From positions 173,474 to 237,473 of the forward strand of contig JAHCBB010000005.1 in the NCBI GenBank assembly GCA_019634635.1: a stretch of 64,000 nt of DNA. The letters are read 5' to 3'. The first letter of the stretch is position 1. Every line of letters begins with the position of its first letter. The notes under the pieces are model-generated. The model saw nothing but the letters and a program-made list of their open reading frames with translations, did not search any database and had not been told where the DNA came from. The translations under genes and the position numbers were made by a program. This DNA is from Verrucomicrobiia bacterium. Lineage in GTDB: Bacteria > Verrucomicrobiota > Verrucomicrobiia > Limisphaerales > UBA9464. This document shows, piece by piece, positions 7,511 through 63,908 of this stretch.

Positions 7511-7560
7511 ACGCCGACTCCATAAGACTTCGGGAGCGCCCGGATGGCAACCGGAAGCGG

Positions 7561-8283
7561 TCAGGCCGCGAGGTTCCGGACGTCCTTCGCCTCCGCAGGC
7601 CCGCCGCGCAACCGGGTTCCGACCGGCGCTTGCGCCGGGTCGGGGCGGACGTAGTCGGGCGCCACCGTGCCCAGGCTGATGATGCACTTGATGGCATCGG
7701 ACACCGACATGTCGAGGCGGGTGAACTCCTCCTCCGGAAGGAACAGGAGGAATCCGGTTGTTGGATTGGGCGTGGTGGGGATGAAGACGCTCCAAACCTC
7801 GCGGGGTGTCCGCGCCTGGATCTCGTTCTGCTGGTCCGCCGTGAGGAACCCGAGAGAGTACATGCCCGGTCTCGGGAACTCGACGAGCACCGTCTGCTGG
7901 AACGAGGATTTGTTGCCGGAGAAAGCCTCCTTCACCTGCTTCACCGTGCTGTAGATCTTGTTCAGCAGGGGGACCCGCAGCAGGATGATGTCCCCGGTCT
8001 GGATCAGCTTTTTGCCAAGGTAGTGCCGGGCGAGCGCCCCCAGGAACGTCACCAAGGCCATGGCCAGGGTCAGCGCGGCGAGGCTCCAGTACCAGTGGAT
8101 GTCGCCCCGAACTCCGTTGACGTACTTCCATTCCCTGGGGACGGCGAACAGCAGCGTGTCCGTGATGTTGGAGACGGTGCCAAAAAGCCAGACGAGGACC
8201 GCGATGGAGATGACCGCCGGCAGGACCACGGCCAGTCCGGTGAGGAAGTTCGCCTGCAACTGCGCCCACGGGGTTTGCTTCAT
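7561..8283 (-). CDS. DUF502-family membrane protein.
   Basis: Two N-terminal transmembrane segments followed by the conserved block GKKLIQTGDIILLRVPLLNKIYSTVKQVKEAF and VLVEFPRPGMYSLGFLT, which is typical of PF04367. Confidence 0.7.
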   Translation of the reverse strand: MKQTPWAQLQANFLTGLAVVLPAVISIAVLVWLFGTVSNITDTLLFAVPREWKYVNGVRGDIHWYWSLAALTLAMALVTFLGALARHYLGKKLIQTGDIILLRVPLLNKIYSTVKQVKEAFSGNKSSFQQTVLVEFPRPGMYSLGFLTADQQNEIQARTPREVWSVFIPTTPNPTTGFLLFLPEEEFTRLDMSVSDAIKCIISLGTVAPDYVRPDPAQAPVGTRLRGGPAEAKDVRNLAA

Positions 8284-15377: not shown

Positions 15378-15417
15378 GGGGTTGCCTGGGGGCGTTCATG
15401 ACGATGCGATTCATGGT

Positions 15418-18500: not shown

Positions 18501-18501
18501 C

Positions 18502-19548
<1,047 letters not shown>

Positions 19549-19569
19549 GGAAAAATGGGGACCGGGATC

Positions 19570-20484
19570 TCAGTGGGTCATGACGTAGAACACGATGTTG
19601 ATGCCCAGGGGATAGGCGATCTTCTCCGAAAAGTTGTGGAAGTAGTAGTCGTCCTCGCCCTCGCGCTCCCAGCCGTCGCCATTGTCCGTGTTGTGCGTGG
19701 CCAGGACCATCAGGCGGCCTTTGTCGTCGGTGATCCCCCGGTGGTGCACCTCCCGGGCGTCCGAACGTTCCCACGTCACACCGGTGTACTGGCTCCGGAC
19801 GCCCAGGCCGACATTCGGCACCTGTCCCTTTTCCTGGATCTCAAAGACACAGTGGTACAGCGGATGGTCGAGCGGCAGTTCCGCAAACGACCGGTCCGGG
19901 AACACCCGCTTCATCTTCGCCTCGCAGTTCGCCCACTCGTTCTCGCCCCAGAAGTCATCCAGCATCAGGAAGCCGCCGTTCAACAGATAGTCCCGCAGTG
20001 CCGCGGCTTCGGCCTCGCTGAGATCCAGGCCGCCGGGTTCGACGATGTAGATGAAGGGGTACTGGGCGAGGTCGGGGTCGGTGAGCCGCAGGATTCGCCC
20101 GTCGGGGTCCACCTTCATCGAGGTCATCTGCTGGAGCCGGTAGGACAGGTTCAAGTCGCTGTCCGGAAGGTCGGTGTCCCAGCCCCCGCGTCCGCCCCAG
20201 CCCCGCGAGTCATAAACGATCCGCGCGAAGGTGAAGACGTCGTGCTCGAATCCGGGCGCGTTGGTCCACATCGGGGTGCCCGTGCTGTGCGAGGGCACTT
20301 CGCGTGCGGTCCGCTCGCGCCCGGTCGCGCCCCCCTCCCATCCCCAACCGCGTCCGCCACGCCGCTGCGCCAGCGCCCAGCCCGAGGCCAGCACCAGTCC
20401 CGCAAGCAGGGCGAGTCCCCACGTGCCACGCAACGTCCGTTCGACCGGGCGGCGCCCGCCGGAGGATGGGGACGTGGGGCTCAT
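19570..20484 (-). CDS. Secreted protein, tentatively DUF4159 family (Bat/MoxR-operon associated), paralog 1.
   Basis: Signal peptide (GLALLAGLVLASGWALA). Conserved core TGTPMWTNAPGFEHDVFTFARI ... TDLPDSDLNLSYRLQQMTSMKVDPDGRILRLTDPDL ... GGFLMLDDFWGENEWANCE ... GWEREGEDDYYFHNFSEKIAYPLGINIVFYVMTH. The family name is from memory of Pfam PF13709 and is not certain. Confidence 0.55.
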   Translation of the reverse strand: MSPTSPSSGGRRPVERTLRGTWGLALLAGLVLASGWALAQRRGGRGWGWEGGATGRERTAREVPSHSTGTPMWTNAPGFEHDVFTFARIVYDSRGWGGRGGWDTDLPDSDLNLSYRLQQMTSMKVDPDGRILRLTDPDLAQYPFIYIVEPGGLDLSEAEAAALRDYLLNGGFLMLDDFWGENEWANCEAKMKRVFPDRSFAELPLDHPLYHCVFEIQEKGQVPNVGLGVRSQYTGVTWERSDAREVHHRGITDDKGRLMVLATHNTDNGDGWEREGEDDYYFHNFSEKIAYPLGINIVFYVMTH

Positions 20485-50016: not shown

Positions 50017-51602
50017 ACGGACGACGTCCACCGTGGGGAGACCGGAATCATCAATCCCGGGCCGCGGGCGATCTCCCATCACGGGCTCTTGCGGGGACGT
50101 CCCTGTCCTGCCGGATCCTGACCCTGGCAACATTGACCGCCATGGCCGGTTGGGGCGCCGAGGCGGGGGACCCCGCCCCCCTGAGACCATCCGGACCGTC
50201 GGAACACCCGGGCGAATTGCTCCAGTACGACTCATTGGGACGGCTGGTGGCGACTCCGACCAACGCCATCCCGCCGCCCCTCCTGCCGCCCCACTCGATG
50301 GGCATCCAGTCCCAGATCCCCAACCCGCCGCGCGGGTTGGGCCACGCGGATGCCACGATCCGACGGCGGATTGACGAGGTGCCGAGAGTCGGGTGGGAAT
50401 GGTTTCCCGCCGCCCCGCCTCCCCTGATGCCCTACCTCGCGGGCAACGACCGGCTCGGCAACACCTCCCTGCGCCCCGGCAGCCTCTTCGAGGTCACCCC
50501 CTGGGAGGGCGCCATTCAGGGGGCGAAATACGCGGCATCCACTTTCGGACTCAACTACTCCCTGGCTCAGACGTTGTCGGTCGTCGGCATGGGAAGCCCA
50601 CTTCAAGGCGACCGCTGGCTCGGCGCCTACGGGCTCGACTTCTTCGCGAAATGGACGGTGTTCAGCAGCCACGGCGGCGCCGCAGCGGGGTGGATCAGCA
50701 CGCAGATCGAGGCCCAGGAAGGGCTCGGAAGCGCCAGCCGGACGGAAACGCCGCAGTCCAATCTTGGCACCTTCACCAACCCCTCCGGGGCGTGGTCCTC
50801 GCGCCAGGGTTTCCGTATCCCGGAACTCGCCTGGCAGCAGTCCCTCGACCACGGACGCTTCGTGGCGCTGGCCGGAGTGGTCAGCCAGGGAAACTATCTG
50901 GACGCCAACACCTATGCCAACTCGGCACGCGGACAGTTCCTCAACTCCGCCCTGATCAACAGCATGGTGCTGCCGCTGCCCGACTACAACCTCGGCGCCA
51001 GCCTCCAATATCAGCCGCAGGACTCCTGGTTCGTTCAGGTCGGCGGCAGCGTCGGCAACACCCCCGCCGGCGCCGCGCCCTGGGTGGACTTCAGCCGGGA
51101 AACCTGGTCGGCGGTCGGCGAACTCGGCTTCACGACGCAGAATGTGGCCGGCTTGGGACCGGGCGCGTATCGCATCCAGCCGTTCATTGCCAGTGCCGGA
51201 GGACCGACGCAGGGCGGACTCGCCTTCAACCTTCAGCAGAGGCTCGGAGAGCAGGTGCCGGTCGGATGGTTCGGACGCTTCGGCGTCGGCGGTTCAGCGG
51301 TCACCCAGGCATCGGCACAGATCGGTACCGGATTCGTCGTCCAGGCGCCCCTGAGGCACCTTGGATTGATCCGTTCCCAACCCAATGACGGCTTCGGTGT
51401 GGGCGTCGTGTGGAGCCGGCCCTCACCGCAAGGGGACGGTCTCACGCCCTCCGACGAGACCGTGCTCGAACTGGGGTACGTCCTCCAGCTCACGCCCATG
51501 CTGCGCGTGCAGCCGGATCTGCAGATCGTATGGAATCCCGCCCAGAATCCCGACACGGACCGGGCGCTCGTCGTGCAACTTCAGCTCGACGCTTCCTGGT
51601 AG
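49983..51602 (+). CDS. Carbohydrate-selective porin, OprB family (outer-membrane beta-barrel). The start codon is uncertain.
   Basis: C-terminal signature LQLTPMLRVQPDLQIVWNPAQNPDTDRALVVQLQLDASW (compare OprB ...LQPDLQYIINPGG..., ending in an aromatic residue). The track ORF's ATG (49983) overlaps the upstream gene by 34 nt and leaves ~60 aa before the probable signal-peptide cleavage (LTLATLTAMAGWGAEA|GD), so a non-ATG internal start is likely. Confidence 0.55.
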   Translation: MGWGRISRTTVNGRRPPWGDRNHQSRAAGDLPSRALAGTSLSCRILTLATLTAMAGWGAEAGDPAPLRPSGPSEHPGELLQYDSLGRLVATPTNAIPPPLLPPHSMGIQSQIPNPPRGLGHADATIRRRIDEVPRVGWEWFPAAPPPLMPYLAGNDRLGNTSLRPGSLFEVTPWEGAIQGAKYAASTFGLNYSLAQTLSVVGMGSPLQGDRWLGAYGLDFFAKWTVFSSHGGAAAGWISTQIEAQEGLGSASRTETPQSNLGTFTNPSGAWSSRQGFRIPELAWQQSLDHGRFVALAGVVSQGNYLDANTYANSARGQFLNSALINSMVLPLPDYNLGASLQYQPQDSWFVQVGGSVGNTPAGAAPWVDFSRETWSAVGELGFTTQNVAGLGPGAYRIQPFIASAGGPTQGGLAFNLQQRLGEQVPVGWFGRFGVGGSAVTQASAQIGTGFVVQAPLRHLGLIRSQPNDGFGVGVVWSRPSPQGDGLTPSDETVLELGYVLQLTPMLRVQPDLQIVWNPAQNPDTDRALVVQLQLDASW

Positions 51603-51615
51603 GTGGCCGGCTACG

Positions 51616-52195
51616 GTTCGGGAAGCGCTCAGGACACCACGATGAGACTCTGAGCGGCTGGCTCCACGCCGCCCCGCGGAATGATTGGCCGCCCGGGGTC
51701 TCGGATCCTGGAGCTCATGCACATCCCGCGGCCCGCTTCCGGGTGCTGGGAGAATGGAGCAATGGATTCAGCGGCGAGGGGACCATCACCAACATCACGC
51801 CCTGCCTGTGGAGCGGCTGGACCGCGTCCTTTAATCTCAACGGAACTCTTCAAAGCGTCTGGAGCGCGCACCGCGCCGCCCGAAACGGCAATCGGTACAC
51901 CGTGACCAACGAGGCGTGGAACGTGGCGGTTCAACCGGGGCAGCGGCTCGTCCTTGGCTTCAATGCCTCTCCATCGTTCGCGCAAGCCGGCGCGCCTTGT
52001 CACTTCATGCTCCACGGCATCGTCACCGGTCAGTGGAACGTCATTCGTCAGGGCCGTTCCGGCACGACTTGCACGTTCGGCAATGCCTCCTGGAACGGTT
52101 CCCTCAAGGCCGGCGGCCACATGACCTTTGGGTTCAATGCCGATCCCGGCGGGACGATCATCCCGCCTTCGAACATCACGATCCGATGGGGCCTG
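51616..52195 (+). pseudogene. Decayed partial paralog of the AA10 LPMO gene, with CBM2 modules only (one CBM2 fused to the C-terminal half of another); no start, no catalytic domain.
   Basis: In-frame peptide ...AHAHPAARFRVLGEWSNGFSGEGTITNITPCLWSGWTASFNLNGTLQSVWSAHRAARNGNRYTVTNEAWNVAVQPGQRLVLGFNASPSFAQAGAPCHFMLHGIVTGQWNVIRQGRSGTTCTFGNASWNGSLKAGGHMTFGFNADPGGTIIPPSNITIRW. This is colinear with LPMO residues ~230-330 joined directly to its last ~60 residues. Nucleotide similarity to 31230-31560 and 32170-32350 is visible. Similarity starts just after the porin stop (51602). Confidence 0.55.
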
Positions 52196-52560
52196 CGGAT
52201 GATTTCCGCGCGGCCGGCAGGCCCGGCCCGCGATTGCCCGGGACGCTCGAAGGGCAGCCGCCTTCGGAGTCTCGTCTCAAGGGTCCCTCCACCCGCCCGG
52301 CTGTCGTGCGCCGACCGGACGGCCCCCGAACCTGCTGCGGTGCCGCATCGGGAACCCGGACCCCGGCGGACGACGGGTGTTCTCGCGAGTTTACAAATCG
52401 CTCCGGGAACCTTATCAGCGCTCGTAGCTCCGCTTGATCGCTCGATCCCGCATCCTGAACCGCCGGTGGTCTGCCACCCGCTCCTCCCCGGGGGCAACCC
52501 CCTGATCGAGGAGCCGGACACGCGCCGGAACCATTCTCCAGTCCCGAACCTGCATCCCCC

Positions 52561-54726
52561 ATGTCCGCCCTCATCGAAGTGGTCCTCACCGGATTCGCCC
52601 TCATCGTCCTTGCCGGTCTGCTCGCCTTCTTCCTGCTCTGCATCCGCAAGATCCAGCCCGGCCGCGCCGGCATCAAGACGGGCGCGGGCGGATTGAAGGT
52701 CGCCTTCGACTGGATGGTCCGGGTGCCGCTCGTCCAGACCTACCACATCATGGACATCTCCGTGAAGAAGCTGGAGATCGCCCGGAAGGGGAAGGATGGC
52801 CTCGTCTGCAAGGACAACATCCGCGCCGACATCACCGTGGCCTTCTACATCCGCGTGGAGGCCACGGAGGAGAGCGTCCGCAAGGTCGCCCAGATGCTCA
52901 CTCCCGAGCGGGTGTCCGATGTGAACCAGCTTCGCGAGCTGTTTGAGGCGAAGTTTTCCGAAGCCCTCAAGACCGCCGGCAAACAGATGGAGTTCCATGA
53001 GCTGTTCACCGAACGCATCAAGTTCCGCGACCAGATCCAGAACACCATCGGCAAGGATCTCGACGGTTTCCTGCTTCAGGACGTGGCCATTGACTACCTG
53101 GAGCAGACGCCGCTGGAGCAGCACGATCCCAGCAACGTCCTCGATGCCGAGGGCATCAAGAAGATCACCGAGATCACCCAGCGCGAGCGCGTTCTGGCCA
53201 ACGAATTCTCGCAGCGCACCCAGGTGCAGGTGGAAAAGGAGAATGCCGACGCCGACATTGCCAAGCGCGAGCAGCGGCGGCGCAACGAGGAGGATACCGC
53301 CCGGCAAAACCGCGCCATCACCGAGGTGCAGGCAAACGAGGAGGCGGAATCCCGGAAGGTGATCGAGTCCCGTCGCATGGAGGTCGAGTCCCGGCGGCTC
53401 GAGACCGAGGAGGCGATCCGTCTGCGCCAGGAGGATCTCAACCGCGCCGTCCAGGAGCGCGAGTACACGGTCCGCAAGGAGCGGGAGCGCCTTGAGCAGG
53501 AGGCCGTGCAGGAGGGTGAGGAGGCCCGCGTCCGTCGTGAGCGGACCGTGTCGCTCGCCGAGATGGACAAGGAGGTGAAGGTCGCCGACGCCGCCGTCGA
53601 GGTGGAACGGAAGCGCGCCACCGTGGTTGCCGAGCAGAAGGCCGTGACTCGTCAGGAGGAGGAGAAGCGCAACATCGAGGCCCGCATGACGGCCGAGCGG
53701 GTCCGCGAGGTCACGCTCATCGAGGCCGAGATGAACGCGAAAAAGGACCAGACCGAAAAGGTGGTGGCCTCCGAGGCCCAGAAGGAGTCCGGACGCAACC
53801 TGGCCGAGGCGGAGAAGATCCGGATCGTCACCGCCGCCGAAGCCGGCCGCGAGGCCGCCCTGCGCGAGGCGGAGCGGCTCCAGACGCTCGCCGATGCCGA
53901 GGCCAAGGTCGCCGACAAACGCCGCCACGCCGCCGAGCAGGAGGCCGAGGGCACTGCCGCCCGGGAGGCCGCCCGCGGGCTTGCCGAGGCCAGGGTCGCC
54001 ATCGCCATGGCCGAAGCCCGGAAGATCGAGGCCGGCGCCCTCAAGGACGTCGGCTTCGCCGAGGCCGCGGTGACCAAGGCCAAGGGCGACGTGCAGGCCG
54101 AGGTCACCGAAAGCCAGGCCCAGGCCGAGGCCGAGGGCACCAAGGACAAGGAACTCGCCGCCGCCGCCGGCATCGAGGCCCGGGGACTGGCCGAGGCGAG
54201 GGCCATCGAGGAGAAGGCGAAGTCCATGAAGCTCCTCCACGAGTCCGGACAGCAGCACGAGGAGTTTCGCCTCCGCCTGTCCAAGGACCGCGACGTCGAA
54301 CTGGCCGCCATCAACGTCCAGAAGGACATCGCCACGGCCGGCGCCCAGGTCGTTTCCGAGGCGCTCCGCCATGCCCGGATAGACATCGTCGGGGGCGAGA
54401 ATGATTTCTTCGAGAAGATCGTCCGCAGCATTGGTACCGGGAAGGCGGTGGACCGCGCGGTGCACAACAGCGCCACCCTCACGGATCTCAAGGACACCTT
54501 CTTCAATGGAGACCCCGGAGATTTCAAAGCCCGGCTCGCACAATGGGTGCAGGACTTTGGCATTCCCTCCGAGGACCTGAAGAACCTGACCCTGGCGGCG
54601 CTGCTGGCCCGGTTCCTCGCCGCCACCGACGATGCCGACCTGAAGTCCGCGATCCGCGCCGCGCTGGCGCAGGTGAAGGAGAAGGGGATGGGGGAGGCAA
54701 GCGCCCAGCAGGTGCTGCAGGCGTGA
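52561..54726 (+). CDS. Flotillin-like SPFH/band-7 protein (YqiK/FloT-like), 721 aa.
   Basis: N-terminal transmembrane helix (VVLTGFALIVLAGLLAFFLLCI). SPFH domain GIKTGAGGLKVAFDWMVRVPLVQTYHIMDISVKKLEIARKGKDGLVCKDNIRADITVAFYIRV. This is followed by a long Glu/Ala/Arg-rich flotillin-type coiled-coil and a C-terminal globular region. Confidence 0.75.
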   Translation: MSALIEVVLTGFALIVLAGLLAFFLLCIRKIQPGRAGIKTGAGGLKVAFDWMVRVPLVQTYHIMDISVKKLEIARKGKDGLVCKDNIRADITVAFYIRVEATEESVRKVAQMLTPERVSDVNQLRELFEAKFSEALKTAGKQMEFHELFTERIKFRDQIQNTIGKDLDGFLLQDVAIDYLEQTPLEQHDPSNVLDAEGIKKITEITQRERVLANEFSQRTQVQVEKENADADIAKREQRRRNEEDTARQNRAITEVQANEEAESRKVIESRRMEVESRRLETEEAIRLRQEDLNRAVQEREYTVRKERERLEQEAVQEGEEARVRRERTVSLAEMDKEVKVADAAVEVERKRATVVAEQKAVTRQEEEKRNIEARMTAERVREVTLIEAEMNAKKDQTEKVVASEAQKESGRNLAEAEKIRIVTAAEAGREAALREAERLQTLADAEAKVADKRRHAAEQEAEGTAAREAARGLAEARVAIAMAEARKIEAGALKDVGFAEAAVTKAKGDVQAEVTESQAQAEAEGTKDKELAAAAGIEARGLAEARAIEEKAKSMKLLHESGQQHEEFRLRLSKDRDVELAAINVQKDIATAGAQVVSEALRHARIDIVGGENDFFEKIVRSIGTGKAVDRAVHNSATLTDLKDTFFNGDPGDFKARLAQWVQDFGIPSEDLKNLTLAALLARFLAATDDADLKSAIRAALAQVKEKGMGEASAQQVLQA

Positions 54727-54732
54727 AGCGCG

Positions 54733-57700
54733 TTGATGATTGGACGGCCATGTCCCGCCCCAACCGCCAACATGGCTGAAACCGGCCCATCGGCCTCCGC
54801 CTCCGCCTCCGGCGCCTCGCCGGACACGGCCGCATCGGCCGCGTCCGCGTTGGGCAGCGCCACCTACGAGGTCATCCGCCAGCGGTTACGGACGCATGCG
54901 GAACAGCTCCGCGAACGGATGGGGCAGCTCGACGCGCGGCGGCGCGAGGTGTTCGGGAGCATCGAGTCGAAACTTCTCCAGGCCGACCGCATTACCACGG
55001 CCCACAACTGCATCCCCCAGGATCTGACGCAGCTCGACCACGGCCGGTTCCTCTTCGGGTTCAACGTCCAGTTTGGACTCAAAAGGGCGGTGGAGCTGGG
55101 CGACGTGTTTGCCGTCTTCGCCCGGGACGACGAGGTCGGCACCTTCAAGGAGGGCGGGCTGGATCCCCTGATGGACCCGCGGTTCCTGACCGACTTCAAG
55201 CGCCTCTATCACGTTTATGAGCGCACGGTGTTCTCGAAGTTTGCCCTGGGCGACGGCCACCTGTTCATGGTGTTCCGGACCGGCGCGGGTCCGGGGGACC
55301 TCGCGGTGTTCAAATGGGCCTTCGACGGCGACGGACTGCGGTATGTGGACGGGCGCGCGGAGGCGGAATACCGCAGGAACGGGTTCCCACCCGCACACGA
55401 GTTTCGCTGGCAGGTGCCGGACCGGGAGTCCTACCGGTATGGCGATCATCCCCACATCTCCATTCAGGACCGCGTGTTCGTGGAATGCATCGGTGGCGAC
55501 CTGACGATCAAGGTCGAGGACAACACCGCCACGGGCGAGGGCGTCTATTCCGAGCCGGTGGACGACCGCCATCAGAAGGTGGACGACGCCGAGATCGCCT
55601 ATGCGCTCCTCGGGCACCTGATTCTGCTGAAGATCCGGCCCTACAAGGAGGCTGCGGCGCGCTTCTTCATCTTCAACGAGAAGCTCCAGAGCGCCGTTCG
55701 CGTGGATTCGCTCGGGCAGTCCTGCGCGCTGCTGCCGGAGGATCACGGGCTGATTTTTCCGGACGGTTACTATCTCGCGACGGGCGGGCTGAAGCGGTTC
55801 GAGAACCGGGAGCGCCTGATGGTGTTGGAGCGCGTGATTCACGCACCGAACGGCGAGGATTCGCTGTATGTGTTTTTCGCGCCGGATTCCGGTTTGTACG
55901 CGTTGCTGCATTACCGGTTGATCGCGCAGCGGGTGGACGAACGGATCACCTGCCACGGCTTCTCGCTCTTTCCCAACGGCCATCTCGTCCTGTCCCGGGC
56001 CGACCCGGCCCCGCAAAAGCACCACACGATCCAGCTCCGGCAGACCCCGTTCCACCGCGCCGGTTTCGAGCCGCCCGGCCGGCGCGACGCCTTCCTTCAC
56101 CGCGTGGGCAACAAGGAGGTCGTCCGCTGCCTTGCCGAGGCCAACGAGGTGCTCACGCTCGCGCTCCGGGACGATCCCTACGCCGAGCTCTATGTGGATC
56201 TGGTGCGCCGTTGCGACGCCCTGCTTGACGCCCATCCGTGGCTTGCGGAGCCGGACGGCTTCCGCGTGGACGACGCGCTGCGCCAGGTGCGTGCGGTGGC
56301 GGACCAGGCGGTGGACGAGTTCGACAGGGTGCGCCGGCTCCAGCAGGATGCCGTGCGACAGCTGGTGGAGGCCCGCAGGCACTGCGAGGAGCGCGCCGAC
56401 CTCGTCCGCCGTGCCGGCCGCGACACGCTGGAGGACTTCGTGCACCACCTGGCCGCGCTGCGACAGCTGCGTGGCGAGCTGATCACCCTCCGGGAGGTGC
56501 GCTACGCGGACGTGCCGCAGGTCACCGCGCTGGAGGAATCGGTGGCCGCGCAGACGGAGGCGTTTGCCGCGGAGTGCGTGACGTTTCTCCTGAAGCCCGA
56601 GGCGCTGGAGCCCTACCGCAAGACGGCGGCGGCCCATCTCGCTGCGGTGGAGCAGGTGACGAGGGCCGCCGAGGGGAGGCGGATCGAGCAGGCCGTGGGC
56701 GAAGCCGGCGGCGCGCTGGAGATGCTCATCGAGATCGTCAACAGCCTCAAGATCGAGGATGCCACCGAGACCACGCGCATCATTGATGGCATCACGGCGG
56801 TGTATGCCACGCTCAACCAGGTCCGGGCGGCGTTGAAGAACCGGCTTTCGTCGCTGATGGCCGCGGAAGGTGCGGCCCAGTTCCACGCGCAGCTCAAGCT
56901 CCTCGGCCAGTCCGCCGCCAGTTACCTCGACCTCTGCGATTCCCCCGGCAAATGTGACGAGTACCTCAACCGGCTTGCGGTGCAGATCGAGGAACTGGAG
57001 GGGGCGTTTGCGGGCTTCGAGGACTACACCGTTCAGCTCGCCGAACGACGCACCGAACTCTACGAGGCGTTCGAGCAGCGCAAGCTGGCGCTGGTCGGCC
57101 AGCGCAATCAGCGCGCCAGCGCGCTGATGACCGCCGTCGAGCGCATCCTCAAGGTCGTCCAGAACCGCCTGGCCTCCTTCAAGACCGTCGAGGAGATCCA
57201 CGCCTACATGGCGTCGGATCTCATGACGGCGAAGATCCGCGAGACGATCGGGCAGTTGCTGGAGCTCGGCGACGCGGTCAAGGCCGACGATCTTCAGGGC
57301 CGCATCAAGGCCGTGCAGCAGGAGGCCGTGCGGCAGCTCAAGGACCGGCAGGATTTGTTTGCGGGCGGGACGGACGTCATCCAGCTCGGCCGGCACCGGT
57401 TCAACGTCAACACCCAGCCGCTGGACCTCACGGTGGTCCAGCGGGATGGCGTGCAGCATCTGCACCTGACGGGCACGAAGTACTTCGAGCCGATCACCGA
57501 TGAAGCGTTCCTGGCCACGCGCGCCGTATGGGATCAGGAGAGCCTCTCGGAGAATCCCACGGTGTATCGTGCCGAGTACCTTGCCTGGCAGCTGCTCAAG
57601 TCGCTGGAGGCCGGGCCATCAATCGGTTCCGGCGGGAGCGAGCCCACATCGGGGACGGCCCGCGTGGAGGCGTTTCTTGGCATGTCGGCGGAGGAGCGCC

Positions 57701-60354
57701 TCGGGTATGTGCAGGCGTTCATGGGGCCGCGGTATTCGGAGGCCTACACGCGGGGTGTCCACGACCTCGACGCCGCACAAATCGCCCTGGCGCTGGCCTC
57801 GACGCATATCGCGTTGCAACTGGCGCGCTTTCATCCCACGGCCCGCGCCGCCGCCGTCGTGTTCTGGACGGGCTTCTGTCCCGCGGACCTCCACGCCCTC
57901 TGGACCCACAAGCTGAAGGGCTTCGCCGGTCGCAACCGCCTGTTCCCCGGCGACCCGGCGCAGCGCGGGTACATCCGGGGGCTGGGTGAACTCATCGCCG
58001 GATTCCTGCGGGCGACGTCGCTGTATCCGGAGGCTCATGCCGAAGAGGCAGGGGAGTATCTCTTCCACGAGCTGGTTCAAGGCGAGGCGTTCGTCGTCAG
58101 CCGCGAGGCGGACCGCCTGGCTGCGGCGTTTCAGCAGCATCTCGTGGCGAAGGGTGCCGACGAAGCATTCCGCGCCGCACGCGAGCCGCTGGTTCCGCAT
58201 CCGGCGAGCGAGCTGGAGCTGGTCCGCGACTGGGTGCGCGGCGGCCTGCTCCTGCATCCCGGGTCCGAACCGCACCTGGAGGAGGTCACGGCCATCGTTT
58301 TCTGCGGCGACCGGATGCCACGCACGCCGGTGAACGCCGGGCTGCGGCAGGAACTCGGGGACCTGCGGGGGGCGCATCCGTTGATCTCGGGCGCCAGGTA
58401 CGTCTTTGATTACCTCGATTTCACGACGCGGCTGCGTCGCTTCGAGCGGGAGGTCCAACCGTGCTTCGAGACGTTTCACCGGCTGAAGCAGCGTCTGATG
58501 GATCAGGAACGCGCGCGCCTTCGCCTCGACGAATTCCGTCCGCGCGTGCTGTCGTCGTTCGTCCGCAACGAGCTCATTGACCGCGCCTACCTGCCGATGG
58601 TCGGCGACAACCTCGCCAAGCAGATCGGCGCGGCGGGTGCGGCGCGGCGCACCGACCTTATGGGACTGCTGCTGCTCATCTCGCCGCCCGGGTACGGCAA
58701 GACCACGCTCCTTGAATATATCGCAAGCCGTCTCGGGCTGGTCTTCGTCAAGATCAACGGCCCGGCCCTCGGGCATCAGGTTGTCTCGCTCGATCCCGAG
58801 GAGGCCGGCAACGCGGCCGCCCGGGAGGAGATCCACAGGCTGAACCTCGCGCTGGAGATGGGGGACAACACGATGATCTGCGTGGACGACATCCAGCACT
58901 GCAGCCCGGAGTTCCTCCAGAAATTCATCTCCCTCTGCGACGGCCAGCGAAAGATCGAGGGGGTCTGGCGCGGCCGGCCCAGGACCTATGACCTGCGCGG
59001 GCGCAAGGTGGTCGTCGTCATGGCGGGCAACCCCTACACCGAGAGCGGGCAGAAGTTCAAAATCCCCGACATGCTCGCGAACCGCGCCGACACGTACAAT
59101 CTCGGCGACATCGTCGGGAACAATGGCGAGTGGTTCAAGGCGAGCTACCTCGAGAACTGCGTCACCTCCAACGCCGTGCTCGCACCGCTGGCCAGTCGTA
59201 GTCCGCAGGACGTTCGCACCTTCATCCGGATGGCGGAATCGGGCGACCGGACGAATGCCACCGCCCTGGAGGGCGGCTATTCGGCGCAGGATGTGGAGGA
59301 GATCCTCAAGGTCATGCGCCGGCTGGTGGCGCTGCGTGAGATCGTGCTCAAGGTGAACCTCGCCTACATTGATTCCGCCGCGCAGGCCGACGAATTCCGC
59401 ACCGAGCCGCCGTTCCGGCTTCAGGGGTCCTACCGCAACATGAACCGGCTCGCCGAAAAGGTTGTGCCGGTTATGAATGACGAGGAGATCCGCACGCTCA
59501 TCCTTGACCACTACAAGGGGGAATCCCAGACGCTCACCACCGGTGCGGAGGCGAATCTGCTCAAATTCAAGGAGCTGTTCGGCGTCATCGCCCCGGACGA
59601 AGCGGCACGGTGGGCGGAGATCAAAAAGACCTTCCAGCGCAACCAGATCACGCGCGGCAACGGGCAGGACGATCCGGTCAGCCGCGTGGTGGGCCAGCTG
59701 GCGGCCTTTCAGAGCGGACTGGATTCCATTGGTCAGACCCTCCGGTCCGGTCTGTCGCGTGAGCCCGCGCCGCTCCATCTGGACCTCGCCGCCGTCGAGC
59801 GGAGTCTGGGGGCGATCGAATCGGCGTTGAGACAACGAGCCGATCCACCGGCAACCGCGCCGGCCTCCGTGGTCATGGATCTCGCGCCGGTGCGCCAGTC
59901 CTTGGAGGCGTTGCGTGAGACGTTGGCGGCGCAATGGCGCTCCGCCGTTCCAGCCCCCGTCGAGGCCGGACAGGACGGCGGGCTGAGCCAGCAGGTGACC
60001 GATGGATTGCGGGGACTGCGCGAGGACCTCAGTCGCGCGATCACGGCCGTGCATTCCGGCACGATGGCGGAAGCGATGAAGCGCATGGAGCACGAGATGG
60101 AGATGGTCCATAGCACGCTGGCGACGTTGAAGGACATCGCAGTCCGCCAGCGGGATCACGTCCGCAACGCCGAGGAACTGCTGGCCACCCGCGCCCGCCA
60201 GGGCACGGTTGAGATCGAGCTGACCCAGGAAATGCTGAGCAACGAACGCGCCTTCCTGGAGAAATTTCATCAGGTCCTGGAGGGCGCGCAGCCGCAGCGT
60301 GCGGGAAATGCCGGCCAGGAGCCGCCGAAGCGGCCGCAACCGCCGGCGGACTGA
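54733..60354 (+). CDS. 1873-aa protein of unknown function with a single MoxR/dynein-type (AAA_5-like) P-loop ATPase domain near residues ~1290-1460.
   Basis: Walker A LLLISPPGYGKTTLLEYIASRLG. Walker B MICVDDIQHC. Sensor 1 KVVVVMAGNPYTESG. KIPDMLANRADTYNLG lies in the Arg-finger region. The first ~1250 residues have a beta-rich section (residues ~100-480) then a long helical region, with no family recognised. The C-terminal ~350 residues are helical. It starts 6 nt after the flotillin stop; an alternative start at Met14 (54772). Confidence 0.65.
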   Translation: MMIGRPCPAPTANMAETGPSASASASGASPDTAASAASALGSATYEVIRQRLRTHAEQLRERMGQLDARRREVFGSIESKLLQADRITTAHNCIPQDLTQLDHGRFLFGFNVQFGLKRAVELGDVFAVFARDDEVGTFKEGGLDPLMDPRFLTDFKRLYHVYERTVFSKFALGDGHLFMVFRTGAGPGDLAVFKWAFDGDGLRYVDGRAEAEYRRNGFPPAHEFRWQVPDRESYRYGDHPHISIQDRVFVECIGGDLTIKVEDNTATGEGVYSEPVDDRHQKVDDAEIAYALLGHLILLKIRPYKEAAARFFIFNEKLQSAVRVDSLGQSCALLPEDHGLIFPDGYYLATGGLKRFENRERLMVLERVIHAPNGEDSLYVFFAPDSGLYALLHYRLIAQRVDERITCHGFSLFPNGHLVLSRADPAPQKHHTIQLRQTPFHRAGFEPPGRRDAFLHRVGNKEVVRCLAEANEVLTLALRDDPYAELYVDLVRRCDALLDAHPWLAEPDGFRVDDALRQVRAVADQAVDEFDRVRRLQQDAVRQLVEARRHCEERADLVRRAGRDTLEDFVHHLAALRQLRGELITLREVRYADVPQVTALEESVAAQTEAFAAECVTFLLKPEALEPYRKTAAAHLAAVEQVTRAAEGRRIEQAVGEAGGALEMLIEIVNSLKIEDATETTRIIDGITAVYATLNQVRAALKNRLSSLMAAEGAAQFHAQLKLLGQSAASYLDLCDSPGKCDEYLNRLAVQIEELEGAFAGFEDYTVQLAERRTELYEAFEQRKLALVGQRNQRASALMTAVERILKVVQNRLASFKTVEEIHAYMASDLMTAKIRETIGQLLELGDAVKADDLQGRIKAVQQEAVRQLKDRQDLFAGGTDVIQLGRHRFNVNTQPLDLTVVQRDGVQHLHLTGTKYFEPITDEAFLATRAVWDQESLSENPTVYRAEYLAWQLLKSLEAGPSIGSGGSEPTSGTARVEAFLGMSAEERLGYVQAFMGPRYSEAYTRGVHDLDAAQIALALASTHIALQLARFHPTARAAAVVFWTGFCPADLHALWTHKLKGFAGRNRLFPGDPAQRGYIRGLGELIAGFLRATSLYPEAHAEEAGEYLFHELVQGEAFVVSREADRLAAAFQQHLVAKGADEAFRAAREPLVPHPASELELVRDWVRGGLLLHPGSEPHLEEVTAIVFCGDRMPRTPVNAGLRQELGDLRGAHPLISGARYVFDYLDFTTRLRRFEREVQPCFETFHRLKQRLMDQERARLRLDEFRPRVLSSFVRNELIDRAYLPMVGDNLAKQIGAAGAARRTDLMGLLLLISPPGYGKTTLLEYIASRLGLVFVKINGPALGHQVVSLDPEEAGNAAAREEIHRLNLALEMGDNTMICVDDIQHCSPEFLQKFISLCDGQRKIEGVWRGRPRTYDLRGRKVVVVMAGNPYTESGQKFKIPDMLANRADTYNLGDIVGNNGEWFKASYLENCVTSNAVLAPLASRSPQDVRTFIRMAESGDRTNATALEGGYSAQDVEEILKVMRRLVALREIVLKVNLAYIDSAAQADEFRTEPPFRLQGSYRNMNRLAEKVVPVMNDEEIRTLILDHYKGESQTLTTGAEANLLKFKELFGVIAPDEAARWAEIKKTFQRNQITRGNGQDDPVSRVVGQLAAFQSGLDSIGQTLRSGLSREPAPLHLDLAAVERSLGAIESALRQRADPPATAPASVVMDLAPVRQSLEALRETLAAQWRSAVPAPVEAGQDGGLSQQVTDGLRGLREDLSRAITAVHSGTMAEAMKRMEHEMEMVHSTLATLKDIAVRQRDHVRNAEELLATRARQGTVEIELTQEMLSNERAFLEKFHQVLEGAQPQRAGNAGQEPPKRPQPPAD

Positions 60355-60522
60355 CCCGGAGATGAGCGCCATGATAACCCGGTGCAGGGCGACGGCCGCC
60401 GGCAGCCCGCGTAGGGATCACCGGAAGTCCAGGGTGCGTCGCCAAAGCGGCTCCGCGGTTCACCCGGTCCCCCGGTCCCGCGATCTCAACCGTCGCCAAC
60501 GAACCGTTTCCCCGAAGTCCCC

Positions 60523-61386
60523 ATGAACAAGATCCAGGCCCGCCTCGAATCCCTCCGTCGCAAGGCGGACCAGTGGAAACAGGTCATCGAAAGTGCACCA
60601 GCGCAGGCTGAGCGCCTGCGCGTGGCCGTGAACACGGCTGCCGGCCAGTTCCAACAGTTGCGCTCCGAAGTCCAGGGGGCTGTCGCCGGGTTGCGGATGC
60701 ATGATGACCGCCATCTTGCCGCAGCCCTGTTGGAGATTCATGAGCATCAGGCCGCCTTCCTCCGCGCCGGCTATGAGCTCGCCGGCCTGGATCTTGAGCC
60801 GGGAATTGCGCCGCGATTGATGGTGCATCTTGAAAGGCTGGACGATGTCGGGACGTCCACACGGCGCGCCGTTCTCGAAGAGACCCGACAGATGCCGACC
60901 GTCCATGCCCTTGTCTCCGCCATTCTCAAGGCGGAGGAGGTGGCTGCCGGGGTTCGGCTGACCGGCCTGGCGTACTGCAAGTTGATCGTCCAGGTGGGTC
61001 CCAGTCCGACCGTTCGTATTGGCTGGAGGCGTGAGGATTTTGAGGAGTCAGCGTCCAGGCCTGGATCCGCACCCGCGCCCGCCGCCACGGCCCCGCCTCC
61101 AGTCCGGAACGAACAGCCCACCTCGGGCTTCTTCGAGCGGTCCGAACCCGCGGCCTCTCCGGGCTCGTCATCACCTTCAGCCACAGCTTCGTCCGAGGCG
61201 GCATCCGTGCCCGTCCCGTTCCGTCCCGCGCCCCAGCCCGCGCGCAGCCTGAGTCCGCTCCGTGTCGCCCCGATTGCGTTGAGCACACCGTTGCGACCGC
61301 GGCCGGAGGGCGATTCCGGCGGCGGGGAGGCGCGCGATTCGTTGGAGCGATTCAAGCGCATGCCCGACCTGACCGGCCGCGGTTGA
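60523..61386 (+). CDS. Hypothetical protein (287 aa): N-terminal helical/coiled-coil half and a Pro/Ser/Ala-rich disordered C-terminal half.
   Basis: MNKIQARLESLRRKADQWKQVIESAPAQAERLRVAVNTAAGQFQQLRSEVQ... then ...SASRPGSAPAPAATAPPPVRNEQPTSGFFERSEPAASPGSSSPSATASSEAASVPVPFRPAPQP.... Same strand, 168 nt downstream of the giant ATPase gene. Confidence 0.5.
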   Translation: MNKIQARLESLRRKADQWKQVIESAPAQAERLRVAVNTAAGQFQQLRSEVQGAVAGLRMHDDRHLAAALLEIHEHQAAFLRAGYELAGLDLEPGIAPRLMVHLERLDDVGTSTRRAVLEETRQMPTVHALVSAILKAEEVAAGVRLTGLAYCKLIVQVGPSPTVRIGWRREDFEESASRPGSAPAPAATAPPPVRNEQPTSGFFERSEPAASPGSSSPSATASSEAASVPVPFRPAPQPARSLSPLRVAPIALSTPLRPRPEGDSGGGEARDSLERFKRMPDLTGRG

Positions 61387-61805: not shown

Positions 61806-62633
61806 TCAAGGTCCGAGGCAGCGTCGGGAAACCGGCCCGGGCCGGATTTCTGCAAGGAGCAGGGTATCCGCGGCGACACCGTAGGGCCCCTCGGCAACCG
61901 GGTTGCCGGAGGAATCCATCAGCAGCGAGCCGCCGATGCAGTGGCGTCCCGCCCAGGGGCCTCCGGTGAGGACCCCGACGTTGCTGACACCTGCGAACCA
62001 GAGGCCGAACTCGCGGGCCACCGGACCGTAGCAGTCACGCCAGAGGCGTCCGTAGGGTTCGCGAACCGGATCGTGGTCGGCGGGAACGGCCCAGGCGCAT
62101 GGCGACAGAATCAACTGGGCGCCCAGCAGACCCAGGGTCCGGCTGATGGGATGTCCGGGCACAAAGGCGTCTGCACAAATCAGGATTCCGATCCTTCCAA
62201 ATGGGGTATCGGCGACCGCGACCCGATCGCCCCGTGCGTAGAGCGCGTGGGCGAACTCCAGTTCGTTGATTTTGCGATGGTGCAGCACCACCGCACCGGT
62301 GTCCGCAATCAGGACGGCGGCGTTGAACACGCGGGCCCCGTCACGCTCCGTGATACCGGCGCAGACCCAGATCCGGTGGGCCTGGGCGGCATGCCTCAGC
62401 GCCTGACATGCGGCTCCGTCGGGAATCGGGCTGGCGCGATTGGCAGCCGAAGGATCCGTCCAACCGAGGTCCATCGCCTCGGGCAGGAGAACGATCCGGG
62501 CACCCCGGGCCGCCGCCTCGGCAATGCCTTGTCGGGCGCGATCTAGGTTGCCGGAAAGGTCGCCGCCCGTGACCAGCATTTGAGCCATCGCGAGGGGGAA
62601 GGGGAAGGGGGATGGGGAGAGATCGCTGGTCAT
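61806..62633 (-). CDS. Carbon-nitrogen hydrolase (nitrilase superfamily).
   Basis: MAQMLVTGGDLSGNLDRARQGIAEAAARGARIVLLPEAMDLGW (catalytic Glu region). GAVVLHHRKINELEF (Lys). GILICADAF (catalytic Cys in ICAD). Start taken at MTSDLSPSP; the alternative MAQMLV is 15 codons downstream. Confidence 0.7.
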   Translation of the reverse strand: MTSDLSPSPFPFPLAMAQMLVTGGDLSGNLDRARQGIAEAAARGARIVLLPEAMDLGWTDPSAANRASPIPDGAACQALRHAAQAHRIWVCAGITERDGARVFNAAVLIADTGAVVLHHRKINELEFAHALYARGDRVAVADTPFGRIGILICADAFVPGHPISRTLGLLGAQLILSPCAWAVPADHDPVREPYGRLWRDCYGPVAREFGLWFAGVSNVGVLTGGPWAGRHCIGGSLLMDSSGNPVAEGPYGVAADTLLLAEIRPGPVSRRCLGP

Positions 62634-62690
62634 GGGGCCGATGATTGGGGCGTCCGGGGCGATTTGTTTCGATTGTTGGTGCCTGCTGCA
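62168..62690. repeat. Direct repeat copy A (~520 bp, ~90% identical to 63448..63960). It covers the upstream region plus the first ~155 codons of the CN-hydrolase gene.
   Basis: Alignable by eye: ...gcacaaatcaggattccgatccttccaaa(t/c)gggg... through ...ggggcgatttgtttcgat(t/c)gttggtgcc. Confidence 0.6.
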
Positions 62691-62748
62691 ATGACCTGTC
62701 CCTCCGTTCCCACCTCGCTGGGTCGCGCTGCGCCGCGCCTCCTCCAGT

Positions 62749-63168
62749 TCAGCCACGGTTGATTGCCCAGAGCAGGGGCACTCCGCCCCATTGCCGTATC
62801 CGCGTGTCGTCGCTGACCAACCGCAACCCGTGCACCAGCGCGGTCGCCACGATGAGTTGGTCGGCGGGATCCTCGTGAAACCCTGCGGCCTGCAGGGTGG
62901 TTACCCTCTCCGCAATGGCGGGCGTGATGGGGAGCACGGTGAGCTCCGGGGTGACGGCCAGGCGGAAGAACTCCGTAAGCGGCACCGCGAGCTCCAGTCG
63001 TCCCAACTCGACCAGCTTTGCGGCCTCCCAGAGTGAAATGTCTGCGAGGGCCAGGGAACCGGCGTGCGAGGTCAAGGTTCGGTCCACCAGCGGCGGCAGG
63101 CGGTCGCCACACGCCCGTTGAATCCAGGTATGGGTGTCGAGGAGATGAGTCACGGGGAGGCCTCCCAC
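62749..63168 (-). CDS. vapC: PIN-domain toxin (VapC-like, type II toxin-antitoxin).
   Basis: THLLDTHTWIW (N-terminal acidic Asp), LSLADISLWE and DPADQLIVATALVHGLRLVSDD (PIN acidic quartet). Overlaps the upstream antitoxin gene by 19 nt. Confidence 0.75.
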   Translation of the reverse strand: MGGLPVTHLLDTHTWIQRACGDRLPPLVDRTLTSHAGSLALADISLWEAAKLVELGRLELAVPLTEFFRLAVTPELTVLPITPAIAERVTTLQAAGFHEDPADQLIVATALVHGLRLVSDDTRIRQWGGVPLLWAINRG

Positions 63169-63392: not shown

Positions 63393-63908
63393 TCAAGACG
63401 ACGCCCACGGTCCGGACGGAGGGACAGGTCCTTGGTGGCCCTCATAGGCATCCGCACAAATCAGGATTCCGATCCTTCCAAACGGGGTGACCGCGACCGC
63501 GACCTGATCACCCGGTGCGTAGAGCGCGTGAGCGAACTTCAGTTCGTTGAATTTGCGATGGTGCAGCACCACCGCTCCGGCGTCCGAGATTAGCACGGCG
63601 GCGTTGAACACCCGGTTCCCGTCGCGCCCGGTGATCCCGGCGCAGATCCATATCCGGTGGGCTTTGGCGGCACGCCTCAGTGCCTGACATGCGGTTCCGT
63701 CGGGAATTGGGCTGGCGTGATCGGCTGTCCACGGATCCGTCCAGCCGAGGTCCATCGCCTCGGGAAGGAGAACGATCCGGGCACCCCGGGCCGCCGCCTC
63801 GGCGATGCGTTGCCGGGCGCGATCGAGGTTGCCGGAAAGGTCGCCGCCCGTGACAAGCATTTGAGCCATCGCGAGGGGGAACGGGACGGGGGAGGGAGCG
63901 GTGGTCAT
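63393..63908 (-). pseudogene. Truncated duplicate of the CN-hydrolase gene (first ~158 codons, then an unrelated 13-codon tail).
   Basis: MTTAPSPVPFPLAMAQMLVTGGDLSGNLDRARQRIAEAAARGARIVLLPEAMDLGWTDP...GILICADA is nearly identical to 61806..62633 up to ICADA, then YEGHQGPVPPSGPWASS and a stop. Confidence 0.55.

Follow-up and report, generated by a model that had tools for sequence, protein, structure and literature searches.

How bacteria build and turn over flotillin scaffolds, and how they link them to function, is a standing question, and the known partner of these scaffolds, NfeD, brings no energy source. In the YqiJ-YqiK operon of Escherichia coli and the NfeD-FloA/FloT operons of Firmicutes, as in the locus analyzed here, the SPFH protein is anchored at its N-terminus and carries a long E/A-rich region. 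Those operons contain no ATPase, whereas our locus contains one but lacks an NfeD/YqiJ gene.

SPFH proteins form domed oligomers, and the HflK/C complex works with the AAA+ protease FtsH (PMC12624060, PMC12048511). The latter case sets a precedent for functional coupling between an SPFH scaffold and an AAA+ machine in the inner membrane (PMC12048511). FtsH is a membrane-embedded protease of the classic clade, and the HflK/C assembly is described as reaching into the periplasm (PMC12048511). In contrast, the ATPase described below is soluble and MoxR-like, with no detected protease domain, and the body of its flotillin is predicted to be cytoplasmic; the two systems share no homology beyond the SPFH and AAA+ folds.

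The flotillin/AAA+ operon described in silico by Ravi et al. (2024, mSystems; PMC11237479), with Dokdonia donghaensis as the example, was proposed to act in membrane dynamics or as a chaperone, and we found no experimental study of any member of this ATPase family in the literature. The association of flotillin with the ATPase was already known from that paper and is not a discovery of the present work. That paper gives no Pfam name, AAA+ clade assignment or linkage statistics. To this published description we add a quantitative account of flotillin-ATPase linkage, the finding that the AAA+ module belongs to the MoxR/dynein group yet lacks a VWA partner, a C-terminal flotillin region peculiar to the ATPase-linked subfamily, and a variant from Verrucomicrobia in which a new, third component is present.

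Organization of the locus

The window, a 64,000-nt stretch of Verrucomicrobiia DNA, contains three co-directional ORFs, and ORF calling confirmed the predicted spacing of 6 nt and 168 nt between them (they and all of their features given below lie on the + strand). They encode a flotillin-type SPFH protein of the ATPase-linked subfamily (52561-54726; 721 aa, ATG start), a giant soluble ATPase composed of DUF3686, DUF7902 and a MoxR-like AAA+ module (54733-60354; 1873 aa, TTG start), and a lineage-specific soluble protein (60523-61386; 287 aa, ATG start). Use of alternative ATPase starts, at ATG codon 2 or at codon 14, would widen the first gap to 9 or 45 nt; homologues can be aligned only from approximately residue 40 onward.

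The flotillin and ATPase agree in architecture, order and orientation with those described by Ravi et al., and the published context recurs gene by gene in a Hymenobacter locus (L001) that shares 48.6% ATPase identity with the window. The window differs from the full form described there in lacking the CesT/Tir-PspA dyad and a YqiJ/YuaF gene, and from the abbreviated form, which retains YqiJ; tblastn searches with three YqiJ-like queries produced no match to a YqiJ/NfeD-like gene in the window. The 287-aa gene, confined to Verrucomicrobia, is not mentioned in the passages of PMC11237479 consulted. In its identity and conserved linkage, the locus is almost certainly an abbreviated Verrucomicrobial copy of a widespread flotillin/ATPase pair.

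The flotillin and its C-terminal region

When residues 1-216 of the first protein were scanned alone, Pfam identified a Band_7 domain (PF01145; E 7e-12, 46.2 bits versus a cut-off of 23.6) at residues 30-171 (52648-53073), which bears out its identification as a flotillin. The whole 721-aa protein gave no Pfam match, probably because of the long E/A/K/R/Q-rich region at residues ~200-550 (53158-54210), a presumed coiled coil judging by its composition (E+K+R+Q+A fraction of 0.57-0.66 per 100-residue block over residues 201-600).

The only hydrophobic segment (Kyte-Doolittle, 19-residue windows of at least 1.6) is a putative membrane anchor at residues ~1-30 (52561-52650), followed by basic residues (IRK...R), and the positive-inside rule therefore predicts that the rest of the protein faces the cytoplasm.

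The C-terminal region (residues 551-721; 54211-54726) is conserved, at the tblastn sensitivity used, only in ATPase-linked flotillins. A search of 72,556 plasmid records gave 11 matches to it, all 11 in records that also carry the ATPase, whereas the SPFH domain matched 314 plasmid records. In the eight plus-strand cases, 100-650 nt separate the end of the match from the ATPase match downstream; the three on the minus strand occupy the equivalent position, at most about 3.5 kb away. The region was also present in 76 of 87 sequences (86 fetched loci plus the window).

Identity to the SPFH protein encoded upstream of the pQBR103 ATPase is 35% over residues 22-631. A YqiK-type flotillin from an E. 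coli plasmid, encoded behind a DUF1449 (YqiJ) gene, is shorter (564 aa) and 30% identical, and aligns only over residues 9-454.

Domain architecture of the giant ATPase

The original prediction described the first 1200 or more residues of the ATPase as a region of no recognisable family, which is contradicted by matches to PF12458 (DUF3686; residues 59-501, E 7.5e-155) and PF25472 (DUF7902; residues 623-705, nt 56599-56847, E 3.4e-25). Together with a C-terminal AAA module (Pfam E 3.5e-6), these matches identify the protein, at the sequence level, as a full-length member of the Pfam DUF3686-DUF7902-AAA family, named 'DNA repair ATPase' by NCBI, whose members are ~1600-1900 aa long. Homologues number 2153 at E 1e-10 or better, and the relatives form 1288 clusters at 50% identity; among the 120 homologues listed, all have PF12458 and PF25472 and nearly all have an AAA-type domain. 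Plasmid-borne members align end to end at 37-49% identity. No hydrophobic segment was found in the ATPase by Kyte-Doolittle analysis.

An AlphaFold2 (AF2) model of the N-terminal part (mean pLDDT 88.1) predicts a long helix at residues ~40-75 (54850-54957; model residues 2-35), an all-beta propeller at residues ~80-437 that forms the core of DUF3686 (54970-56043; model residues 41-398), and helical bundles, including DUF7902, at residues ~454-720 (56092-56892; model residues 415-680). The Foldseek matches to this model are propellers, at E 1e-7 to 1e-5: Sec12, IFT-A, Elp1, prolyl oligopeptidase and the clathrin N-terminal domain. Their TM scores are low because the model is multi-domain. The central region (residues 721-1224; 56893-58404) contains conserved blocks in alignments and has no Pfam or PDB sequence match; it may harbour an activity that would alter the mechanism considered below.

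The predicted ~350-aa helical tail turned out, in alignments and the AF2 model, to consist of two parts. The first, a lid followed by a conserved helical domain (residues ~1461-1660; 59113-59712), includes a near-invariant RTEPPFKLQGSYRNMN block and is 47-62% identical even where the first 1200 residues of a relative share no more than 25-46% identity with the window protein. The second (residues ~1661-1873; 59713-60354) is variable and poorly conserved outside close relatives: matches from other phyla stop near residues 1650-1750, beyond which the alignment consensus is mostly 'x'.

The AAA+ module

The motifs on which the prediction of a MoxR/dynein-clade module relied (LLLISPPGYGKTTLLEYIASRLG, ICVDDIQ and VVVMAGNPY) are all present in the ATPase translation. 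The alpha/beta core (residues ~1300-1460; 58630-59112) contains Walker A SPPGYGKTT (1317-1325), Walker B ICVDD (1382-1386), a pre-sensor-1 beta-hairpin (1407-1420) and sensor-1 (N1433). Residues K1323 (GYGKT), D1385/D1386 (VDD), N1433 and R1451 do not vary among 27 diverse homologues, and R1451 is, by its position, a candidate arginine finger.

For the AF2 model of this part (pLDDT 83.5), the nearest solved structures were the MoxR ATPases CbbQ and NorQ, followed by midasin and dynein; the assignment to the MoxR/dynein group therefore holds. The pre-sensor-1 hairpin is seen at model residues 183-196, and the segment corresponding in position to a helix-2 insert (model residues 119-136) comes out as a loop that bears short helices rather than as a hairpin. 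Neither of the canonical MoxR models, AAA_3 and bpMoxR, matches the giant ATPase, though both match the MoxR protein of a Bat-like operon in the window. From its fold, the ATPase is assumed to form hexamers.

MoxR ATPases are remodellers that normally act with a VWA partner (PMC13036017). In the CbbQ-CbbO, NorQ-NorD and RavA-ViaA systems the MoxR protein is ~250-500 aa long and has such a partner (PMC13036017, PMC9976466), whereas here the module lies within a propeller-bearing protein of 1873 aa with no conserved VWA partner nearby. Pfam detected no VWA domain in the ATPase itself, and no VWA gene was found in the conserved neighbourhood of the pair in the loci examined. Since modules of the MoxR type ordinarily depend on a VWA/MIDAS partner, this observation counts against the mechanism considered below.

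The Bat-like operon, ~35 kb from the flotillin/ATPase locus, has its own canonical MoxR gene (AAA_3; 18502-19548). A BatA-VWA gene (15418-17535, - strand) is present there as predicted, but it does not encode the sole VWA-bearing protein of the window, because the same operon encodes a DUF58 protein with a VWA_2 domain (17532-18500).

Taken at face value, the family name would make the protein a RuvB-related ATPase of DNA repair, with flotillin as an unrelated neighbour. The Pfam text for DUF3686 reads 'ATPase involved in DNA repair', weak RuvB_N and RuvB matches surround the Walker A motif, RuvB gave the best Foldseek E-value for the AAA+ model, and a LexA-family regulator lies divergently upstream of the Hymenobacter locus. 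Nevertheless, the protein does not show the combination of a full-length RuvB equivalog match, DNA-binding domains and repair-gene context expected of a RuvB-type repair helicase. The name lacks support and is likely to mislead, and a repair function is hardly credible.

Conservation of the flotillin/ATPase linkage

Relatives of the ATPase occur in at least 588 species genomes. A co-directional flotillin gene lies just upstream of it in 68 of the 71 loci (96%) whose upstream DNA extends for 2.5 kb or more, drawn from at least seven phyla; the 80 loci of the genome scan cover Verrucomicrobiota, Planctomycetota, Bacteroidota, Desulfobacterota, Clostridia, Kiritimatiellota and Omnitrophota. An SPFH/flotillin gene also directly precedes the ATPase gene in Hymenobacter, on Pseudomonas pQBR103 and on Streptomyces and Deinococcus plasmids. 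The linkage is not a matter of local chance. In the other three loci there is no flotillin gene within 7.7-10 kb upstream of the ATPase, which is therefore not strictly dependent on an adjacent flotillin. Had the giant protein belonged to a characterised family with orthologues unlinked to flotillin, the original prediction would have failed; it survived, because the family has no characterised function and the orthologues are linked.

In most lineages a YqiJ/NfeD-like membrane protein gene precedes the pair (YqiJ-like genes were found upstream in 53 of 66 loci), and in some lineages a CesT/Tir-like gene and PspA come before that (PspA in 17 loci, CesT in 15). The proposal that the giant protein stands in place of NfeD fits this lineage, in which YqiJ is absent, but most relatives keep both the YqiJ/NfeD-like gene and the ATPase.

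These neighbours suggest another substrate: the ATPase might be a Vps4-like factor for the disassembly or regulation of a PspA/ESCRT-III-like polymer, with PspA encoded elsewhere in the genome and flotillin serving only as the membrane platform. The CesT/Tir-like gene, PspA and YqiJ precede the pair in Hymenobacter and ~15 Bacteroidota loci, a PspA-yjf operon lies just upstream of it on pQBR103, and bacteria are described in a review as having no Vps4-like ATPase for PspA (PMC7619361). We consider this explanation improbable.

The same neighbourhoods bear on whether the pair could be a conflict or anti-phage module of the abortive-infection type, in which a large NTPase with a beta-propeller sensor affects the membrane via flotillin. 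The phylum distribution of the pair is patchy, copies of the ATPase occur on megaplasmids (pQBR103, Hymenobacter, Streptomyces, Deinococcus), the NTPase-plus-propeller layout is reminiscent of conflict systems, and four loci have a phospholipase-D (HKD-motif) gene in their vicinity, which in L012 and L014 follows the ATPase. However, the conserved partners YqiJ, PspA and CesT are envelope-stress genes, and the AAA+ core and following domain are highly conserved (47-62% identity across representatives sampled at 50% identity). Nor do the flanks of the window locus (OprB porin and CBM2 protein genes upstream, a probable hydrolase and a probable PIN gene) constitute a defence island. A search of PADLOC-DB 2.0 gave no significant match for the ATPase (best mad8, E 1.4e-4, then IetA, E 0.014, both to the P-loop region only) and no match for the flotillin or the third protein. 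A defence role is, on balance, very improbable.

Putative mechanism

The ATPase lies beside a flotillin of a dedicated subfamily in 96% of the loci sampled and has relatives in hundreds of species, which makes it an obvious candidate for an energy-dependent regulator of flotillin. We infer that its most likely function is that of a flotillin-anchored AAA+ remodeller in membrane maintenance or stress. Taken as a whole, identity and mechanism together, this explanation has a probability of roughly 0.55. The mechanistic part by itself, recruitment of the ATPase to flotillin as an ATP-driven remodeller, is tentative, with the odds somewhat against it.

According to this proposal, flotillin would oligomerise at the inner membrane, on its cytoplasmic side, and recruit the ATPase, which has no membrane segment of its own; contact would probably involve the propeller or helical arms of the ATPase and the flotillin C-terminus peculiar to this subfamily. 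Acting as a MoxR-type remodeller that forms rings, the ATPase could then drive the ATP-dependent assembly, disassembly or turnover of the flotillin scaffold, or of clients held by it, in the service of membrane maintenance or an envelope-stress response.

The notion of a flotillin-scaffolded ATP-driven machine of unknown function is retained as regards the conserved flotillin linkage and the MoxR-type AAA+ module; its novelty is reduced, in that the protein belongs to known Pfam families, the operon had been published and most relatives keep NfeD/YqiJ. A bolder version is speculative and doubtful: the DUF3686 ATPase and flotillin would together make up a self-contained, ATP-driven membrane machine, with a flotillin dome replacing the VWA/MIDAS partner of a MoxR-type ring and the Verrucomicrobial 287-aa protein replacing the YqiJ/NfeD accessory subunit. 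If so, no earlier case would be known of a factor dedicated to the energy-dependent assembly or disassembly of a flotillin scaffold in bacteria.

The third gene

In the 287-aa protein, a ~175-aa N-terminal domain is followed by a P/S/A/G-rich linker, in which an FFER motif occurs, and by a C-terminal RFKxMPxL motif; the protein has no hydrophobic segment (Kyte-Doolittle) and belongs to no Pfam, NCBIfam or PADLOC family. An HMM of the N-terminal domain detected the gene in nine Verrucomicrobial sources only. It lies downstream of the ATPase gene on the same strand in the window and in loci L005-L008, L010 and L011, and downstream but convergent in L012 and L014; its product is 38-40% identical to those encoded at the same position in L005 and L006.

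The gene may lie outside the system, as an unrelated lineage-specific gene placed there by chance. Its lack outside Verrucomicrobia would fit this explanation, as would its absence from L009 (where the ATPase is 66% identical), the 168-nt gap, its variable orientation and its GC3 of 0.74, below the 0.86-0.89 of the other two genes. Yet it adjoins the 3′-end of the ATPase gene in nine sources, despite ATPase identities to the window protein of only 50-78% and even where its direction is reversed, and this is the pattern expected for functional linkage. Moreover, neither intergenic gap of the locus, including the one before the third gene, contains a terminator-like site. We therefore regard chance placement as unlikely, although a serious contender, and the 287-aa protein may be a lineage-specific adaptor or regulator of the flotillin/ATPase pair. 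A database protein 100% identical to it is annotated as 'hypothetical protein KF791_05550, Verrucomicrobiae bacterium'.

Organization of the locus and properties of the flotillin

The three genes were recovered as co-directional open reading frames at positions 52561–54726 (flotillin, 721 aa), 54733–60354 (giant AAA+ ATPase, 1873 aa, counted from a TTG as the earliest in-frame start) and 60523–61386 (287 aa), and these coordinates bear out the gaps of 6 nt and 168 nt reported in the original prediction. The ATPase reading frame also contains ATG triplets at codons 2 and 14, and alignment with its homologues begins only at about residue 40; the start of this gene is therefore uncertain, and the first gap may be as long as 45 nt. 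The GC3 values (0.89, 0.86 and 0.74 for genes 1, 2 and 3, respectively, in surrounding sequence of 67% GC) are compatible with three real genes. Scanning of both intergenic gaps for promoters and terminators gave nothing informative. The genes preceding the flotillin on the plus strand, encoding an OprB-family carbohydrate porin (49983–51602; E 1.4e-20) and, just 5′ of the flotillin, a small cellulose-binding (CBM_2) protein (51680–52300; E 5.7e-22), lie outside the flotillin/ATPase system.

The complete flotillin gave no match in Pfam, and NCBIfam and PADLOC contained no family for it; residues 1–216 submitted alone matched Band_7 (46.2 bits; cut-off 23.6). The protein carries a single hydrophobic anchor, which is N-terminal, and its SPFH domain is followed by a stretch of approx. 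350 residues rich in E, A, K and R. It shares 30% identity with an E. coli plasmid flotillin encoded behind a DUF1449 (YqiJ) gene, in an alignment confined to residues 9–454, and 35% (residues 22–631) with the SPFH protein encoded 5′ of the pQBR103 ATPase. When 72,556 plasmid records were searched, the SPFH domain matched 314 and the last 170 residues only 11, all of which (11/11) carry the giant ATPase, in each case in a gene adjoining that of the flotillin. The restriction of this C-terminus to ATPase-bearing records indicates that the ATPase-linked flotillins form a recognizable subfamily with a C-terminus of their own, part of which may be a diverged form of the generic flotillin C-terminal segment.

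Conservation of the flotillin–ATPase pair

Comparison with other genomes revealed an obligate or near-obligate pairing of this flotillin subfamily with a MoxR-like AAA+ protein that is soluble and bears a propeller. In annotated records of plasmids (Bacteroidota, Pseudomonadota, Actinomycetota and Deinococcota), a gene for a flotillin/SPFH protein of 640–720 aa lies directly 5′ of the ATPase gene. When a single genome of each species was scanned, ATPase relatives were detected in at least 588 species, and 80 loci were kept (from Verrucomicrobiota, Planctomycetota, Bacteroidota, Desulfobacterota, Clostridia, Kiritimatiellota and Omnitrophota). Upstream sequence of 2.5 kb or more was available for 71 loci, and in 68 of these it contains a co-directional flotillin gene. 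The spacing of 6 nt is peculiar to the window, the spacer in relatives reaching approx. 0.9 kb.

The three remaining loci (L023, L024 and L066, from Cytophagaceae, Desulfobacteraceae and Bacteroidia) encode a full-length ATPase with no flotillin within 7.7–10 kb upstream, as confirmed by iterative profile search.

The pair is often linked to YqiJ/NfeD and PspA envelope-stress genes: of the 66 loci for which 4.5 kb or more of upstream sequence is available, 53 also have a YqiJ/NfeD-like gene preceding the flotillin, and PspA occurs in 17 loci and a CesT/Tir-like gene in 15. PspA might be the real substrate of the system, a reading that we consider rather unlikely. YqiJ, PspA and CesT are all absent from the locus in the window and in its nearest relatives, which instead have a gene for a protein of approx. 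280 aa located 3′ of the ATPase. This arrangement is what distinguishes the window. The proposal that its flotillin has no NfeD partner holds for this locus and does not extend to the relatives in general.

The association of flotillin and ATPase is already known. Operons joining CesT/Tir-PspA with three other genes, among them that of a YqiJ/YuaF membrane protein, were described by Ravi et al. 2024 (PMC11237479), who report that shortened versions lacking PspA are widespread and propose a chaperone-like role or one in membrane dynamics. An entry for Dokdonia donghaensis in their supplement has the gene order that we observed in the Hymenobacter locus, including a divergent LexA-like regulator. 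That study was the only work returned by literature searches for flotillin, YqiJ and AAA+; those for DUF3686, PF12458 or "DNA repair ATPase" with flotillin returned no papers, and the ATPase goes unmentioned in a survey of the SPFH proteins of Pseudomonas aeruginosa published in 2026. The system is real and strongly conserved, and our searches found no experimental paper on it.

Four loci contain a gene with a phospholipase-D-type HKD motif near the ATPase: L012 (16646–17350, plus strand; motif HHKFAIFD, read by eye), L014 (9259–10113, plus strand), L032 (3247–3942, minus strand) and L034 (15504–15980, minus strand). This agrees with the statement by Ravi et al. 2024 (PMC11237479) that a phospholipase D hydrolase forms part of some operons, and gives a hint that the function may be lipid-directed.

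In a 78%-identical relative (L005) the region between flotillin and ATPase contains a gene for a 189-aa protein without Pfam match (7140–7709, plus strand), which is absent from the window. In L007 (9014–9796) it is occupied by several tandem copies of an element of approx. 180 nt, which translates as "...PTAHAVGYRLPVLRTS...GPEGRKTVAHGVSRGWTW...PQPQRGDRSQTPRNLAPLRGW". A similar motif lies 3′ of the ATPase in L009 (7096–7399). These Verrucomicrobia thus probably have a repetitive element of extragenic type.

The giant ATPase

The N-terminal region of the ATPase had been described as lacking any recognizable family, which proved incorrect: PF12458 (DUF3686, "ATPase involved in DNA repair") matched residues 59–501 (E 7.5e-155) and PF25472 (DUF7902) residues 623–705. 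Around residues 1300–1440 Pfam gave weak matches to AAA, AAA_5 and RuvB_N. More than 2000 homologues were found in a big protein database at E 1e-10 or better, the architecture being common to all 120 among the matches listed. In their sources these homologues go by "DNA repair ATPase", "AAA family ATPase" and "MoxR-like ATPase", among other names; a genuine role in DNA repair, as the first of these and the PF12458 description would imply, is very improbable. Representatives of clusters formed at 50% identity were searched exhaustively, which yielded 1288 clusters (E ≤1e-3).

The Walker A, Walker B and sensor-1 motifs are present in the translation, with key residues that do not vary among 27 diverse homologues. 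Conservation within the protein is highest in the AAA+ module and the domain following it (47–62% identity), and the N-terminal 1200 residues of the same relatives are as little as 25–46% identical to those of the window protein.

Neither the protein itself nor a profile built from 27 sequences detected, in the PDB, a solved structure related beyond the P-loop. The matches (RuvB, p97) span approx. 35–90 residues around Walker A, and the AAA+ module therefore cannot be classified from such searches. The AlphaFold2 model of residues 1225–1700 (pLDDT 83.5) contains an AAA+ core with a pre-sensor-1 β-hairpin and a long helical C-terminal domain, and this predicted structure supports the proposed placement in the MoxR/dynein clade. 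The model of residues 40–720 (pLDDT 88.1) comprises a long helix, an all-β domain, identified by Foldseek as a β-propeller, and helical bundles. A likeness to propeller-plus-solenoid coat proteins (IFT-A, clathrin) was rejected, the Foldseek matches being generic and too weak (TM ≤0.2).

Two propeller motifs, LPExHGxIFPxGYYL (residues 334–348) and SPNGED (residues 372–376), are invariant or nearly so, and are kept across relatives whose N-terminal regions are down to 23% identical to that of the window. A site of binding or catalysis may lie there.

The third protein

The ATPase is followed by a related gene in the nearest relatives, in which the N-terminal domain (approx. 175 residues) and the C-terminal motifs FFER and RFKxMPxL are conserved at 38–40% identity. 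An HMM of the N-terminal domain matched nine Verrucomicrobial sources and nothing else among the fetched loci, and a word-indexed homologue search with the protein returned two proteins only. One database protein, 100% identical, assigns the window to a Verrucomicrobiae MAG. In L012 and L014 the homologue is convergent to the ATPase, yet still adjacent. The protein has no hydrophobic segment and no family in any library searched (Pfam, NCBIfam and PADLOC).

A relationship to PspA was considered and rejected (weak HMM match to PspA reading frames, E 7e-4; profile-profile probability 0.7%). No similarity to CesT or YqiJ was found.

Possible mode of action

Because basic residues come after the anchor, the body of the flotillin would lie on the cytoplasmic side of the membrane, where it may assemble into the usual SPFH oligomer (PMC12624060). 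The ATPase, in which no hydrophobic segment was found, would be recruited to this oligomer, could form a ring as its structural neighbours do, and might spend ATP on remodelling the scaffold or its clients. HflK/C-FtsH offers a precedent for SPFH–AAA+ cooperation (PMC12048511), although its parts share no homology with the flotillin and ATPase beyond their folds. That the locus represents a conflict or anti-phage system seems improbable.

A VWA protein is the normal partner through which ATPases of the MoxR type act (PMC13036017). No conserved VWA partner occurs at the flotillin/ATPase loci; either its role would be taken by the propeller and flotillin, or an equivalent may be hidden in residues 721–1224 of the ATPase.

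Other features of the window

The VWA genes of the window belong to a self-contained Bat-like MoxR-VWA system, unrelated to the flotillin and ATPase. This operon (11742–20484, minus strand) consists of five reading frames, encoding a DUF4159 protein (19570–20484), a canonical MoxR with AAA_3 (18502–19548), a DUF58 protein with a VWA_2 domain (17532–18500), BatA with VWA (15418–17535) and a 1211-aa protein without Pfam match (11742–15377).

Downstream of the third gene, on the minus strand, two paralogous reading frames flank another one (61806–62756, 62749–63168 and 63393–63908). The paralogues, which by eye look like carbon-nitrogen hydrolases, have in common a near-identical N-terminal stretch (PFPLAMAQMLVTGGDLSGNLDRARQ...), the second copy being truncated, and the flanked frame looks, again by eye, like a PIN-domain (VapC-like) gene. 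This group may have arisen by local duplication or insertion.
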